Shown here one piece after another: positions 4,784 through 11,368 of a DNA stretch of 64,000 nt; positions within the stretch are counted from its first letter, which is position 1, and each line of letters starts with the position of its first letter. Source of the stretch: Motiliproteus sp. (lineage in GTDB: Bacteria > Pseudomonadota > Gammaproteobacteria > Pseudomonadales > Balneatricaceae). The position numbers and the translations under genes were made by a program. The notes beneath the pieces are model-generated. The model ran no database searches. It was given only the letters and a program-made list of their open reading frames with translations, and was not told where the DNA came from. The DNA lies in NCBI GenBank assembly GCA_048265065.1, contig JBLXCH010000004.1, positions 12,886 to 76,885 of the forward strand, read 5' to 3'.

Positions 4784-5572
4784 TTGTTTAAACATATTCC
4801 GCAGGATCAGCCATTACCAACACCCGCGTTGGCTCAAGAAATTTATCGCTGCTACGATGAATTCGGCGTGATTAGGGTATTGGAGGATAACTGTTTTCGT
4901 TATCTCGCTTTCGGCGACGGAGGAGAGCAAAGCTGTATCCGAATTGATACACCTACAGGCTTAGTGCACAACTACATAAAAGTCATGCTTATGGGGATGT
5001 GCTTTTTGCCGCAGGCTGCTCATTGTACGGTTATTGGTGTCGGTGCCGGATCTCTGGTTACTGGGCTTCAACAGTTTAATAATGCTTTGCTCATACAAGC
5101 GGTGGAACTACGAGCTGAAGTTCTCTGTGTTGCCAAGAAGTGGTTCAAGTTTAATCCGTCCGAGCAAGTTTCCGTTGTTATCTGTGATGCATTTGGCTAT
5201 CTATGCTCATCGCCTGCGATGACCGATGTGCTTTTTATTGATATTTATAATGATGATGGAATAGATGATGGCGTCAGTGATTATGAGTTTGTTGCTGATT
5301 GTTATGACGCGCTTAATGAAGGCGGGTTATTAGTCATGAATTTATGGAAAGAGTCAGGAGGTATTCACCGGCGTGTGCTCAAAAATATCCGACGTTATTT
5401 CTCACAAAATGTGAAAACTGTCACATTGGATGATGGCAATATTATCGTCTTTGCTAAAAAGTCGGGCGCAAAAATGCATTGCTTAAAAGGTGTGGAGAAG
5501 CTTGAACGTCTCAGTTTAATATCAACATTTAGTCCAGCGGATTTTGAATCCGCATTACAGGATTACCGGTAG
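4784..5572 (+). CDS. Spermidine synthase-like SAM-dependent methyltransferase-fold protein
   Basis: VIGVGAGSL motif I, AVELRAEV, DAFGYL, DVLFIDIY, GGLLVMNLW; TTG start. Confidence 0.75.
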   Translation: MFKHIPQDQPLPTPALAQEIYRCYDEFGVIRVLEDNCFRYLAFGDGGEQSCIRIDTPTGLVHNYIKVMLMGMCFLPQAAHCTVIGVGAGSLVTGLQQFNNALLIQAVELRAEVLCVAKKWFKFNPSEQVSVVICDAFGYLCSSPAMTDVLFIDIYNDDGIDDGVSDYEFVADCYDALNEGGLLVMNLWKESGGIHRRVLKNIRRYFSQNVKTVTLDDGNIIVFAKKSGAKMHCLKGVEKLERLSLISTFSPADFESALQDYR

Positions 5573-6269: not shown

Positions 6270-6719
6270 TTAGCTAAGCACGTATTCGAAAATCTCAGCC
6301 ACTTGCTCTGGCGTTCGGCACACTGCATTGGCCGCCGCGTCAACTTCTTTAAGCGGGTGGTTTACGTCTTCATCATGAATAATGATCAGCGATTTATCTA
6401 ACGCCGCAGCAAAACCTGCGTCGAAAGCTGCATTCCACTGCTTGTATTGAGCACCAAAACGAACAACGACAACATCAGCGTCGAGGATGAGGTTTTTGGT
6501 ACGGATGCCATTTAAGTTAGCGCCCATACGGTCTTCCCAAAAACGGTTTGGTTCTTCCCCAAGGATGTTGACTGCACATTTGTCGCTGGCTTCGTGATCA
6601 GTGACTGGACTTGTGAAAATAATTGGCAATTCTTTTTCTTGGCAGCTGGCGATAATGCGCTCACGCCAGTCAGTGTGAATTTCACCTGATAGGTATACGA
6701 CCCATTCTTTGTGATGCAT
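6270..6719 (-). CDS. YtoQ family protein (nucleoside deoxyribosyltransferase-like fold)
   Basis: VYLSGEIHTDWRE, VVRFGAQYKQWNAAFDAG, HPLKEVDAAA. Confidence 0.9.
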   Translation of the reverse strand: MHHKEWVVYLSGEIHTDWRERIIASCQEKELPIIFTSPVTDHEASDKCAVNILGEEPNRFWEDRMGANLNGIRTKNLILDADVVVVRFGAQYKQWNAAFDAGFAAALDKSLIIIHDEDVNHPLKEVDAAANAVCRTPEQVAEIFEYVLS

Positions 6720-6893: not shown

Positions 6894-7358
6894 TTAAGGT
6901 TTGTTAAAAAACTTGCGGCCCAACAAATGATCGACTGAAAGTTTGCCGGGACCGAGTAACGCGACCATCAGTAACATGAACCCCCATAGCTGGTGGTCGT
7001 AAAATCCGCCATCCCAAATAGCTGGATAGGAAATTACGGCAATAATATTAAAGAGAAATAAAACGGCAGCGGCAGGTCGGCCAAGTAGACCTAACGCTAA
7101 TAATGGGGGCAATAGTAATTCTGTCGCTGTCCCCATGTATGCTGCAAGCTCAAAAGGTAATAGCGGGACGTTATATTCATATTCAAACAAAAATAAGGTG
7201 CTTTCCCAGTTGGCTATTTTTGCTTGTCCCGCTTTGAAAAAGGCCCAAGCGACAGTTAATCGAGCTAACAATAGAGCAAGAGGTAACAAAAAACGCTCTG
7301 CTTGGTGACTGAGGCATTGATATAGGTTGACGATTTTGCATGCGGCGTTCTTATTCAT
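6894..7358 (-). CDS. bufD: DoxX family membrane protein (BufD-like)
   Basis: LLARLTVAWAFFKAG, LFEYEY.VPLLP, GPGKLSVD; start moved to MNKNAA overlapping the DUF2063 stop. Confidence 0.85.
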   Translation of the reverse strand: MNKNAACKIVNLYQCLSHQAERFLLPLALLLARLTVAWAFFKAGQAKIANWESTLFLFEYEYNVPLLPFELAAYMGTATELLLPPLLALGLLGRPAAAVLFLFNIIAVISYPAIWDGGFYDHQLWGFMLLMVALLGPGKLSVDHLLGRKFFNKP

Positions 7359-8130
7359 AGGGTGACTCCTTCGCTTCATCGATAAAGCTGACAATAATGC
7401 GTTGTTGAATCCACAATTCTAAATAGACAGAAGCAGCTTCAGCGGTTGTTTCGGTCGTAGTTATTTGGGTAATGGTGCGCTGGTTTTCTAAAGCACCCAG
7501 TAATGCGGCTTGAGCTTCTGTGATTATTTCCATGGCAACGCTGTGATCAGGCTCTAGCCGGAAGAGCACAGTTTCTTGGGCCGTAAGGTCAATATTTTCA
7601 AAATCATTGTTGGTGACACCGCGCCAAATGGAGAGAGCTGCGCTGTTAAAGCGCTGCCACGCCATATTACGGTTAAGTGCGAAAACAATGTTCTCTTGCT
7701 CTATTGGGTTGAGTGTTTGTAAGTGCTCAAAAGGAAAAGGCTCAAAACGTTGAAACCGTCGATTACCTAAGCGATCTAGCTGCCACTCCAGAGCGGCTAC
7801 ATCTGTCAGGTAAGGCACTGTTGCAGCCGCTTCAAAGTTCGCAATAAAAAGGGGAAGATGTTGTCCGTAATGATCAAGCTGTGGGGATTTTGGCGGATTT
7901 GAGTCAATGTAGACGGAGGCAATGTGTGAGAAAAAATCATCGCCAACTAGTGCTAATGTAACGGGAAAAACAGCTTCTAAGTATTCTGTTAGGCTGACTC
8001 GGTAATTGTTTTTGTACACTTGGAGTAATTGCTCCATAGGCGCTGGCCCGATTAAGGCGTCATCAATAAAAGGGGTTGGACTTCCATTGATCGCCTCGGC
8101 GAATTGGCGCTGAAATTGGTCCGTATTCAT
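7351..8130 (-). CDS. bufC: DUF2063 partner / RRE-like protein (BufC/HvfC-like)
   Basis: Q..FAEAI, LQVYKNNYRVSLTEYLEAVFP.T.ALVG.DFF, YL.DVA.LEW; ATG at 8130 overlaps the DUF692 TGA (ATGA). Confidence 0.85.
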   Translation of the reverse strand: MNTDQFQRQFAEAINGSPTPFIDDALIGPAPMEQLLQVYKNNYRVSLTEYLEAVFPVTLALVGDDFFSHIASVYIDSNPPKSPQLDHYGQHLPLFIANFEAAATVPYLTDVAALEWQLDRLGNRRFQRFEPFPFEHLQTLNPIEQENIVFALNRNMAWQRFNSAALSIWRGVTNNDFENIDLTAQETVLFRLEPDHSVAMEIITEAQAALLGALENQRTITQITTTETTAEAASVYLELWIQQRIIVSFIDEAKESPYE

Positions 8131-8981
8131 GCCTGTACCTGCAATGGATCGCTGCTGCGGGATTGCCGTGTTTTGGCTTTGTCTGCCTCGTCCATCAGTA
8201 CACTTAAATCTGGAATATCGGTATCCCACTCAATCAGCGCAGGGGCTTCTGAGTATTGGCGAAAATGCTCAAATAACCTCCATACGGGGTCGCAGACACG
8301 TGAGCCATGGGTGTCGATGAGTATTTCACCGTTCTCTAATGGTTTGCGGGTAAAGCCGGCTAAATGGATTTCACTCACAGCGCGATGATTAATTTCTTGC
8401 AGGTAAGTTTCTGCGCTGTAACCGAGATTAACGCTGTTGACGTAAATATTGTTGAGGTCGAGCAATAGCTGGCAGCCAGTCCGTTCTTGCAGTGTATTGA
8501 GGAATGCCCATTCAGTGTAATCGGCCTCAGCGGCTAGCAGGTAGGTTGTTGGGTTCTCAATGAGAATAGGCTGCTGTAGCGTGTCCTGTACCTGAGATAC
8601 CTTGGCTGAAAATAAATCGAGCATTTCCTTGCTGTAAGGAATCGGTAGCAAGTCATTGAAGTATTGAGCGTTGTAGCTGCTCCAGCTGAGGTGCTCGGAA
8701 ACTAAACTCGGCTGATAATGGTTAATGAGGCTTTTAATACGCTGTAAATGATGACGGTTAATTGGATCGACTGATCCTAAAGAGAGACCAACCCCGTGAA
8801 ATGAAAGGGGGTAATATTGAGCAATTTCATCCAAACATTCACGAGAAAAACTATTTGGATCAAGGAAGTTTTCGCTATGGATTTCTAGCCAATCGATGTC
8901 AGGTCGTTGTTCGATAACTTGTCGATAATGCGGTGATCGAAGACCTATTCCGATTTGTTTGGCTTGAATACTCAGTTCCAT
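8127..8981 (-). CDS. bufB: DUF692 multinuclear non-heme iron oxidative enzyme (MNIO, BufB-like)
   Basis: IGIGLR, WLEIHSENF, FHGVGLSLGS, SEHLSW, IENP, LLLDLNNIYV, EIHLAG, IDTHG, IEWD. Confidence 0.95.
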   Translation of the reverse strand: MELSIQAKQIGIGLRSPHYRQVIEQRPDIDWLEIHSENFLDPNSFSRECLDEIAQYYPLSFHGVGLSLGSVDPINRHHLQRIKSLINHYQPSLVSEHLSWSSYNAQYFNDLLPIPYSKEMLDLFSAKVSQVQDTLQQPILIENPTTYLLAAEADYTEWAFLNTLQERTGCQLLLDLNNIYVNSVNLGYSAETYLQEINHRAVSEIHLAGFTRKPLENGEILIDTHGSRVCDPVWRLFEHFRQYSEAPALIEWDTDIPDLSVLMDEADKAKTRQSRSSDPLQVQA

Positions 8982-9062: not shown

Positions 9063-9320
9063 TTACATCTTTGCTGTTAAGCTACCGCCAGCAAGCTTTT
9101 CACACAGACCTTTAGGTAGTGCTACAAATGCATCACCTTGAGCGTCTTTCTTTGCAGTACCAGCACAAGAGCTGTTCTTCGTTGCGCAATCATTGTGGCC
9201 TGCTTTAGCAACGCCATAGCACTTCTCTTTTTCAGCAGCCATTGCTGGAGTAGCAACAGTTGCACCAAGAGCAATGATTCCAGAGATAGCAGCAGCGGCA
9301 GCGATGTGGTTCTTTTTCAT
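9063..9320 (-). CDS. bufA1: DUF2282 bufferin-type RiPP precursor with Sec signal peptide
   Basis: MKKNHIAAAAAISG...PAMA signal then EKCYGVAKAGHNDC..SSCAG...LPKGLCEKLAGG; 4 Cys; RBS AGGTGA favours ATG at 9320. Confidence 0.92.
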   Translation of the reverse strand: MKKNHIAAAAAISGIIALGATVATPAMAAEKEKCYGVAKAGHNDCATKNSSCAGTAKKDAQGDAFVALPKGLCEKLAGGSLTAKM

Positions 9321-9380
9321 TGTGTTCACCTATTACGTTGTGTGGGTTTGTTATGGCGCTTTGTTGCGCTCAGTAACTTA

Positions 9381-9407
9381 TACGTGGTGGTTTTCTAGGT
9401 AGATTCA
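9381..9407 (-). promoter_or_regulatory. Candidate ECF sigma promoter for the buf operon
   Basis: Minus strand TGAATC-N17-CGTA about 60 bp upstream of the bufA1 start; CGTA -10 is typical of several ECF groups. Confidence 0.5.
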
Positions 9408-9566
9408 GAAAACAGTGTTTTTTATTATTTATTGCTAAATAAGCCTAGCTTAATTCAAGCGAACTGCTTGCCTATTGGCGGCGAGTGAGTTCTAGGTGGA
9501 AGCATTAGGTAATGAGCGCAGCTGATATGCGTACATGAATAAGCTTGGTGGAAGCGGATAATAGAG

Positions 9567-9644
9567 GTGAGTAGTAAGAGTGAGTAGTAAGAGTGAGTAG
9601 TAAGAGCGAGTAGTAAGAGTGAGTAGTAAGGGTGAACAGTAGAA
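9567..9644. repeat. 13-bp tandem repeat GTGAGTAGTAAGA, 5 near-perfect copies plus 1 degenerate
   Basis: Units start at 9567, 9580, 9593, 9606, 9619, 9632. Confidence 0.95.
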
Positions 9645-9653
9645 ACAGGCAAT

Positions 9654-9680
9654 AAAAAGCCCAGCTTAACTGGGCTTTTT
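9654..9680 (-). terminator. Intrinsic terminator of the sigma/anti-sigma operon
   Basis: AAAAAGCCCAG-CTTAA-CTGGGCTTTTT. Confidence 0.9.
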
Positions 9681-9706
9681 GGAAAGCTTGCTAAATAGGT
9701 AGACGG

Positions 9707-10393
9707 TTAGAAGCGTATCCGCTTCCACTCTGTCCTATCGGATACTGGCCCCATTTGGTTTCCGCTTGGTGCACCTTCTGGACCTTCCATAGTGACAACG
9801 ATTTCACTTTCCATGAGTTTTTTCTTCCACTCAGGCTTAAGTTTCATTGTCCGTGTGACATTATCTCCGCCTGGCAAGAAGCCGAGGCTGATGGGTTCTT
9901 TTCCATCAATCATTAGCCAAGCTTCATAGACGGTGTTTTCAGGCATCTTTACCTCTTTGAGGCAGGTAATAGTTAGCTCCTCTTCTTTTAAGGAGGCGTT
10001 CATTACCCAGCCAGGGTCTTCTTTCTCATCTTTGATGAGTTGTACGTACATGTTGTCTGGTGTACTGAAAGGCTGGAACATCACGCCAATCGCTAATAAA
10101 AAGGCAAAAGACATTGCTGCCAGCGGCTGCCAGCTGAACCATGACCACTGGGGCTTAGGTTTAGTTGCTTTCTTAATAGTCGACCAAACGTGAGCAGGTG
10201 GCGAAACAGGAGTTAGACTTTCGTTAAGAACGTCTAGGTGCTCACGCCATTGTGCGACTTCATCTTGAGCATCTTGGCTAACCGCCAACAAAGACTCAAA
10301 ACGTGCTTTTTCAGTTTTGTCTAGAGTCCCCAGTACGTACTCTGCAGCCATTTGGTTACGCTGGTCTGGGTCGCTCAAATCGAACTCATGCAT
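9707..10393 (-). CDS. RskA-type anti-sigma factor
   Basis: N-terminal AAEYVLGTL anti-sigma domain, one TM helix, C-terminal YEAWL and VTMEGPEGAPSG..GPV. Confidence 0.85.
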   Translation of the reverse strand: MHEFDLSDPDQRNQMAAEYVLGTLDKTEKARFESLLAVSQDAQDEVAQWREHLDVLNESLTPVSPPAHVWSTIKKATKPKPQWSWFSWQPLAAMSFAFLLAIGVMFQPFSTPDNMYVQLIKDEKEDPGWVMNASLKEEELTITCLKEVKMPENTVYEAWLMIDGKEPISLGFLPGGDNVTRTMKLKPEWKKKLMESEIVVTMEGPEGAPSGNQMGPVSDRTEWKRIRF

Positions 10394-10944
10394 GTTTGCA
10401 ACCTCGCCAGTCCACGTCGAATCCAGGTTTTTACAGTGCCTAAGGCAATCTCTGTCTTATCAGAAACACCTTGATGACTTAGCCCATCAAAGTAAGCAAG
10501 CTCTATACATTGGCGTTGCTCTTGTGGGATTTCACCTAAACAACGATGAAGCTGCTTGGTGTCTTGCATGTGGCTAACCTGTTGTTCTTGACCGGCACTT
10601 CCATCTTCTAGTGTATCTAATGCGTCATCACCATCATGCAAATCGCTATGGCGGTTACGGCGCAGCATATCCAAAGCTTGGTTTCGCGTTATTGTATTCA
10701 TCCATGTTTTGGCTTTGGCTTTGGCGCAGTCGTAACTGCCTGCATTTCGCCAAACACTCATGTAAACCTGTTGAAGGCAATCTTCCGCGAGGCTCTGGTC
10801 TTTTAATATACGCAGGGCGACACTGAATAGATTCGATGATGTGAGTTCATAAAGAGATTGTAAGTCTTGATGACGATCTTGCGCGCAGCCTTGAAGAAGT
10901 CCGGCTAGCTTTAACTGCGTTTCGTCGCTGTTTGTATTCGTCAT
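10375..10944 (-). CDS. ECF sigma-70 factor, SigK-like
   Basis: LYELTSSNLFSVALRIL, AEDCLQQVYMSVW, WMNTITRNQALD, region 4 LGTVKTWIRRGL; overlaps the anti-sigma gene. Confidence 0.93.
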   Translation of the reverse strand: MTNTNSDETQLKLAGLLQGCAQDRHQDLQSLYELTSSNLFSVALRILKDQSLAEDCLQQVYMSVWRNAGSYDCAKAKAKTWMNTITRNQALDMLRRNRHSDLHDGDDALDTLEDGSAGQEQQVSHMQDTKQLHRCLGEIPQEQRQCIELAYFDGLSHQGVSDKTEIALGTVKTWIRRGLARLQTCMSSI

Positions 10945-11179: not shown

Positions 11180-11368
11180 TTATTTTTGCTTCTGCTTTGC
11201 CACTTTACGCTTTAATGCAACCGCAGAGACAGCAACGATAGAAACTACGGCGAAAATGCTGAGCGCATGAATAGGATTGCTTAACCAGTGACTGTGATCA
11301 TGACCGGCGTGAGCAAGTGCTGCCGTTGAAGTAAAGCCAGTAAAAGCAGCCGTTAAAATACGTAACAT
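11180..11368 (-). CDS. Small His-rich membrane protein (signal peptide, HAGHDHSHW, TM helix, basic tail)
   Basis: 62 aa ORF with RBS GAGG; AALA|HAGHDHSHW cleavage pattern. Confidence 0.8.
   Translation of the reverse strand: MLRILTAAFTGFTSTAALAHAGHDHSHWLSNPIHALSIFAVVSIVAVSAVALKRKVAKQKQK

Follow-up and report, generated by a model that had tools for sequence, protein, structure and literature searches.

A SigK/RskA-type sigma/anti-sigma pair adjoining a Buf1 bufferin operon in Motiliproteus: a probable, lineage-restricted regulator swap

Bufferins are the largest group of peptides made by MNIO enzymes and protect bacteria from copper, and the only regulatory input characterized for them so far is the pair of the extracytoplasmic function (ECF) sigma factor SigF with the anti-sigma factor NrsF. 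The closest known systems are the buf1ABCD cluster of Caulobacter vibrioides with sigF-nrsF (ECF16) and, grouped with it, rpoE7-ecfR7 with SMb20527-30 in S. meliloti and rpoQ-rsqA-gig in C. metallidurans (PMC11626156, PMC3511200, PMC6180224). Here, we describe a locus of Motiliproteus sp. in which the same four-gene Buf1 cluster as in Caulobacter (DUF2282 precursor, MNIO, DUF2063, and DoxX) adjoins a SigK/RskA-type pair. The locus resides in a stretch of 64,000 nucleotides, called the window hereafter, from contig JBLXCH010000004.1 of assembly GCA_048265065.1 (positions 12,886 to 76,885), and all coordinates are given in window numbering. Common to the SigF/NrsF systems and the locus are a neighboring ECF sigma/anti-sigma pair and a dedicated ECF promoter, which is predicted in our case. 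Whereas NrsF is a DUF1109 protein with six membrane helices and sensing cysteines, the anti-sigma factor of the window is a single-pass protein with an RskA_C domain. The sigma factor belongs to ECF16 in the former systems but is ECF18-like with the SigK cysteine pair in the window; the promoter type likewise differs, GTAACA/CGAA in the former and TGAATC/CGTATA in the latter.

Control by SigF/NrsF, which an earlier sequence-only reading of the window had ascribed to characterized bufferin loci in general, holds for the Caulobacter type but is not the only case. In Neisseria (SigE, NMB2144/2145) and in H. influenzae (RpoE2-HrsE), other ECF pairs control a DoxX/DUF692/DUF2063 (hvf, oxazolin) cluster in an oxidant stress response, with a small cytoplasmic zinc-binding ZAS protein as the anti-sigma factor (PMC7907618), in contrast to the membrane-bound RskA-type protein of the window. 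A published MNIO survey found sigma domains at 23% of the loci and NrsF at 12%, with nothing else listed above 5% (PMC12452194 Table S1), so that about half of the sigma-linked MNIO clusters have an unclassified anti-sigma factor. The regulators themselves resemble SigK-RskA of Mycobacterium tuberculosis (PDB 4NQW; ECF19) and the proteobacterial ECF18 pairs in the homology of the sigma factors, including both aligned cysteines, in the RskA-type anti-sigma gene that lies directly downstream and overlaps, and, as predicted for the window, in the CGTA-type promoter with a spacer of 16–17 nt. Unlike the M. tuberculosis SigK regulon, which comprises mpt70/mpt83 and the sigK locus, the predicted target in the window is the operon of a RiPP metallophore, a peptide made on ribosomes and modified post-translationally. 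The window pair also differs by an A instead of a C in the −35 element and by a sigma gene that has no cognate promoter upstream.

We interpret the locus as a regulator swap on an ordinary Buf1 operon, in which an ECF18/SigK-like sigma factor and RskA provide the input, the promoter PbufA is the target, and rskA is subject to internal feedback. As a whole, this explanation is probable on the evidence of sequence comparison. All features of the locus are on the minus strand, in the order sigma gene, overlapping rskA, terminator, tandem repeat, PbufA, and bufA-bufB-bufC-doxX. The operon contains the components by which Buf1 clusters are recognized. bufA (9063..9320, with the ATG at 9320) encodes a DUF2282/BufA1 precursor (PF10048, E=2.8e-23) with a Sec signal peptide (…PAMA/AEKE) at its N-terminus and a core of four cysteines. 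bufB (8127..8981) encodes the MNIO (DUF692) maturase of the BufB type (PF05114, E=1e-99), which scores 358.9 bits with NF050167 MNIO_BufB, above the curated cut-off of 310 bits, and is the sole MNIO of the genome. The DUF2063 partner protein (bufC, 7351..8130; PF09836, E=6e-21) and the DoxX-family membrane protein (bufD, 6894..7379; PF07681, E=6e-13) follow within the same operon of overlapping or abutting genes; the start of bufC overlaps the stop of bufB (ATGA), and that of bufD is uncertain, with the ATG at either 7379 or 7358. The cluster is an ordinary bufferin operon by its sequence, and its product is predicted to undergo 5-thiooxazole conversion of cysteines and to bind copper.

The sigma-RskA pair very probably controls this operon, since four independent lines converge: conserved linkage, a conserved promoter, the right type of promoter, and no alternative regulator. 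The pair adjoins bufA-D in six loci, namely in the window, L169, L004, L009 (Motiliproteus sp. MSK22-1), L170, and L005/L006. In these loci the anti-sigma relatives have at least 51% identity, whereas the relatives at 43% identity or below (L171, L007, L010, L008, and 78 others) lack the buf linkage. Two gene orders occur among the linked loci, sigma-rskA-bufA..D and bufA..D-sigma-rskA. In a maximum-likelihood tree of the concatenated sigma and RskA sequences, the six linked pairs group together as a single clade (support 100/100), and the unlinked L171, L010, and L007 branch off as its successive sisters; a single gain of the linkage is therefore sufficient. The synteny of RskA-type pairs with DUF692 clusters, which the sequence-only reading had named as a test, is thus present in six loci of a single clade. 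We also considered a regulatory link that would be older than the physical linkage and rejected it, as the buf loci of an unlinked sister genome (L172, L173) lack the promoter motif. A search of the whole genome for NrsF (PF06532) gave no match; the positive control, from Caulobacter, was detected. Together with the six linked loci and the conserved promoter, this upholds the original proposal that the bufferin cluster is paired with SigK/RskA-type regulators instead of SigF/NrsF.

PbufA is a putative ECF18-type promoter, TGAATC-N17-CGTATA, at 9379..9407 (−), 58 nt upstream of the bufA ATG. Its TGAATC-N17-CGTA core, already noticed just upstream of bufA from the letters alone, is an exact match at 9381-9407. 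The full element TGAATC-N17-CGTATA occurs without mismatch in all seven bufA-upstream regions of the six linked loci, 58–113 nt before the start codon; hexamers and spacing are identical among the seven copies, and the surrounding spacers are otherwise unalignable. Upstream of many other RskA-paired sigma genes we found TGCATCC-N16-CGTAT, which is the published ECF18 consensus (PMC13492112 Table 4), and PbufA would therefore be the right type of promoter for this sigma factor, with the same spacing and the same −10 element and one different base in the −35 element. The A-variant of the −35 element (GAATC) is found only at bufA and within the linked sigma gene. The minus strand of the rskA-bufA interval showed no promoter resembling the sigma-70 type. 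Genome-wide, the strict motif has four matches, compared with about two estimated by chance (by hand arithmetic). Two further exact intergenic sites of TGAATC-N17-CGTAT, at C14:1692(+) and C17:9996(−), may be extra regulon members or chance matches; one of them lies 170 nt upstream of a gene of the sodium:solute-symporter family, the other precedes, by 70 nt, a DUF2064 gene that has a radical-SAM gene next downstream. Motiliproteus MSK22-1 likewise has four genomic matches of the strict motif, of which the one at PbufA is the only intergenic one, and this distribution suggests a minimal regulon.

The sigma gene (10375..10944) encodes a protein of 189 residues with the Pfam domains Sigma70_r2 and Sigma70_r4_2. 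Its best NCBIfam matches, PRK12537, PRK12514, and the SigK model PRK09646, all stay under their cut-offs (141 bits for SigK, with a cut-off of 226), and the closest solved structure is M. tuberculosis SigK (4NQW_A, E=4e-24). By sequence, the protein is a two-domain ECF sigma factor most similar to SigK, and its placement in ECF18 as opposed to ECF19 would follow from taxon and promoter. Cys135 (HRCL) and Cys185 (QTCM) flank region 4 and pair, in an alignment without gaps, with residues 150 and 200 of the 4NQW_A chain, which would be Cys133 and Cys183 of SigK, provided that the 204-residue chain begins with a tag that accounts for its 17 extra residues. With this numbering, the correspondence of the two cysteines to those of SigK, claimed previously, is confirmed. 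It had also been taken to indicate a thiol-redox or metal-sensitive circuit at this locus, and this claim is unsupported as stated: 81 of 83 sampled RskA-paired sigma factors carry the pair regardless of their neighbors. The cysteines are a published hallmark and second regulatory layer of ECF18/ECF19 (PMC7826278), with conservation of 94% and 56% in the two groups (PMC7509140). Because the trait is family-wide and already published, it is no evidence for thiol-redox or metal sensing specific to this circuit.

One could still suppose that Cys135/Cys185 are themselves the sensor, through a thiol-disulfide switch or Cu(I), so that the circuit would be a cytoplasmic redox or metal switch with RskA in a merely structural role. 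The exact alignment with SigK Cys133/Cys183 speaks for this idea, as do the requirement of the cysteines for full SigK activity and their influence on RskA binding in M. tuberculosis and Yersinia (PMC7509140), and their listing as a second layer of regulation. However, a pair that is present whatever the regulon does not explain the coupling to a copper peptide, and the buf-linked clade differs from its sisters mainly at RskA residues, periplasmic ones included. We therefore consider a cysteine sensor unlikely; Cys135/Cys185 may rather modulate the binding between sigma and anti-sigma factor, as in M. tuberculosis.

The anti-sigma gene rskA (9707..10393) lies directly downstream of the sigma gene, overlaps it by 19 nt, and is preceded by a separate ribosome-binding site, GAGG, 8 nt 5' of the ATG. 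The encoded protein of 228 residues matches RskA_C (PF10099) with 41.4 bits (E=2e-10), above the cut-off of 29.4 bits, and NCBIfam NF052375 with E=2e-23, under the cut-off of that model; its N-terminus aligns weakly with the RskA chain 4NQW_B (E=0.07). In an AlphaFold (AF2) model (pLDDT 84.8), the N-domain is helical, residues 89-105 form the only membrane helix, and the C-domain is a β-sandwich; the modeled layout is that of a cytoplasmic anti-sigma domain, a single membrane helix, and a periplasmic RskA_C β-sandwich. The ZAS motif is absent from the protein. The assignment of the two genes as an ECF sigma factor with an RskA-type single-pass anti-sigma factor, made from the sequence beforehand, thus agrees with the Pfam domains, the SigK homology, and the AF2 model. 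Most of the residues specific to the buf-linked clade are located in RskA, among them periplasmic Met150, Met214, Trp189, and Trp223. A paralogous RskA-type module is encoded on contig C5 (49507-51383) and consists of a DUF3455 protein, an ECF sigma factor of 182 residues with the cysteine pair at the same positions, and an RskA of 248 residues; TGCATCC lies upstream of the DUF3455 gene, without a CGTA −10 element at the expected spacing.

Several observations weigh against our interpretation. The −35 element of PbufA has an A where the family consensus has a C, and the motif taken alone is not significant in the window, with one occurrence found, 0.38 expected, and at least one match in 28 of 100 shuffles; its significance derives from the conservation across loci. 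The second RskA-type pair on contig C5 could in principle read PbufA. On the sensory side, the clade comparison found no conserved Cys or His in the periplasmic domain of RskA, and a fold search with the RskA model returned only generic Ig/FnIII-like matches, all with E>0.005, none of which is informative on the signal. As RskA Cys144 is also not conserved among the relatives, a metal site in the periplasmic domain, which we had considered, is unsupported.

The adjacency of the two operons might also be merely historical, bufA being read by another sigma factor, such as the DUF3455-linked C5 paralogue or a housekeeping sigma factor, while the adjoining pair controls something else. Besides the existence of the C5 pair, the similarity of its upstream TGCATCC to the −35 element and the two additional strict-motif sites upstream of unrelated genes would fit such a scenario. 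Against this, the linkage has persisted through a rearrangement of gene order within a single clade, the A-variant −35 element is confined to bufA and the linked sigma gene, the motif is missing from the buf clusters of the sister genome without the linkage, and the intergenic region between rskA and bufA offers no sigma-70-like promoter on the minus strand. We regard a purely historical adjacency as improbable and retain the adjoining pair as the regulator of the operon.

How widespread the pairing is was assessed from both sides. Among the 80 species-representative loci most similar to the window RskA, bufB lies within 8 kb in one, which belongs to Motiliproteus. Conversely, 80 MNIO loci drawn from 300 genomes of the same class, Gammaproteobacteria, include 36 with a DUF2282-like precursor and five with an ECF sigma gene within 2 kb, and none of the 80 has an RskA-type neighbor. 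The identifiable anti-sigma factors at these five loci are small ZAS-type proteins (two loci) and a zf-HC2-like protein (one locus). In the gammaproteobacterial Buf1 clusters L134 (6355-10237) and L146 (5071-9338), the partner of the ECF sigma factor is a ZAS anti-sigma factor of about 90 residues (H-x3-C-x2-C), i.e., of the Neisseria/Haemophilus type, attached here to DUF2282-type bufferins. A further sample comprised 94 Pseudomonadota genomes with 108 RskA_C genes, 52 of which also encode MNIOs (59 genes); by comparing coordinates by hand, we found no RskA_C gene that shares a contig with an MNIO gene at a distance of 50 kb or less. A general association of RskA with MNIOs is rejected by all these counts. 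In the literature searched, RskA is not named in any paper alongside bufferin, MNIO, DUF692, or DUF2282, in line with the initial impression that the pairing is undescribed. The RskA-bufferin pairing is rare, a probable regulator swap and no new kind of system, and is confined to a small lineage of marine Gammaproteobacteria resembling Motiliproteus.

The second promoter-like element of the locus is located inside the sigma gene. The cognate motif (up to two mismatches) is missing from the 300 nt upstream of the sigma gene in all six linked loci, and we rejected autoregulation of the sigma gene via an upstream cognate promoter on these grounds. Instead, the element cGAATC-N17-CGTATA resides within the sigma open reading frame (ORF), at 10807..10835 (−) in codons 37-46. 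All six linked loci carry it, the copy of L169 ending in CGTATC, and so does the unlinked sister L171, again with CGTATC; in the relatives, it is positioned at 5559 (L004), 7559 (L009), 5559 (L005), 905 (L169), 5559 (L170), and 5562 (L171). We propose that the element is probably a sigma-dependent promoter for rskA, judging from its pattern of conservation. In E. coli, a comparable sigmaE-dependent promoter for rseA lies inside rpoE, and such a layout is therefore not unprecedented.

Part of this conservation is due to coding, as the element falls within a conserved protein segment, which is a further point against our interpretation. The element might be no promoter at all and simply a by-product of the conserved LFSVALRIL segment and shared ancestry, given that the encoded residues belong to a conserved helix of region 2.1 and that all carriers of the element are homologous genes. 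The codon usage argues otherwise. Within the 17-nt spacer, synonymous sites differ between the loci; the codons that make up the hexamers, AAT-CTA and CGT-ATA (ATC in L169 and L171), are by contrast kept, even in the 58% GC locus L004, where CTA accounts for 2% of the Leu codons and ATA for 8% of the Ile codons; the joint probability of the codon choice is 5e-5 to 6e-3 per genome. Across the 83 RskA-paired sigma genes, the Arg codon of the site is CGT in 34 of 53 cases (64%, vs. 19% background) and the Ile codon is ATA in 24 of 40 (60%, vs. 18% background), an approximately threefold enrichment of each. The element is also rarer in genes with an upstream autoregulatory motif (3/17) than in those without (31/66). 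A coding by-product thus seems to us rather unlikely, though less so than a cysteine sensor, and we continue to regard the element as a putative rskA promoter. A broader proposal, which we advance tentatively and with slightly more doubt than conviction, is that many sigma genes of the ECF18/SigK type carry an in-frame cognate promoter, kept by rare codons, that transcribes only the anti-sigma gene and so provides a built-in negative feedback replacing the upstream autoregulatory promoter; to this, the Motiliproteus-like clade would have added the capture of the bufferin operon as the sole external target.

In the proposed mechanism, the ECF18/SigK-like sigma factor would be held at the inner membrane by the single-pass RskA-type anti-sigma factor. 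An envelope signal would lead to release of the sigma factor, which would then transcribe bufABCD from PbufA. Copper or oxidant stress is plausibly this signal, an obvious guess from the cargo by analogy with the systems described in PMC11626156 and PMC7907618. The sigma-rskA operon is probably expressed constitutively from a housekeeping promoter, because it ends in a terminator of its own and is not preceded by a cognate promoter. Once the sigma factor is active, the element at 10807-10835 probably raises the transcription of rskA, which would provide negative feedback without positive autoregulation. The intrinsic terminator is located 3' of rskA at about 9646..9680 (−) and consists of a 12-bp stem, including A-U pairs, followed by a U-tract; it folds with −20.3 kcal/mol (z=−4.2), a stability that 0 of 200 shuffled sequences reached.

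The spacer between this terminator and PbufA contains a 13-nt tandem repeat at 9567..9635, GTGAGTAGTAAGA, in 5.3 copies (Tandem Repeats Finder score 124, matches 94%). Directly after the DoxX gene lies a gene for a YtoQ-family nucleoside 2-deoxyribosyltransferase-like protein (6270-6719, −), which has its counterpart in the closest relative, L169 (5017-5466), and is probably plain synteny. On the other side, between cobO-like cobalamin genes and the sigma gene, an ORF of 62 residues (11180-11368, −) has an N-terminus resembling a signal sequence, a stretch rich in His (HAGHDHSHW), and a single membrane helix. Neither Pfam nor NCBIfam gave a match for it, and no counterpart adjoins the sigma gene in L004 or L169.

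The impact of the finding is moderate, as the pairing is rare and the control of a bufferin operon by an ECF pair is already known in principle. The locus indicates that an unchanged cargo operon can be coupled to another sensor module, here SigK/RskA. Its promoter is fully readable and its predicted regulon very small, which would make it a clear example from nature of how ECF modules are exchanged. Should the promoter-like element within the sigma gene prove real, it would exemplify a way of arranging feedback that has received too little attention in a large ECF family. The signal to which RskA-type anti-sigma factors of proteobacteria respond may also become accessible through this locus; provided that the cargo buffers copper, the first candidates would be copper and envelope damage linked to copper.

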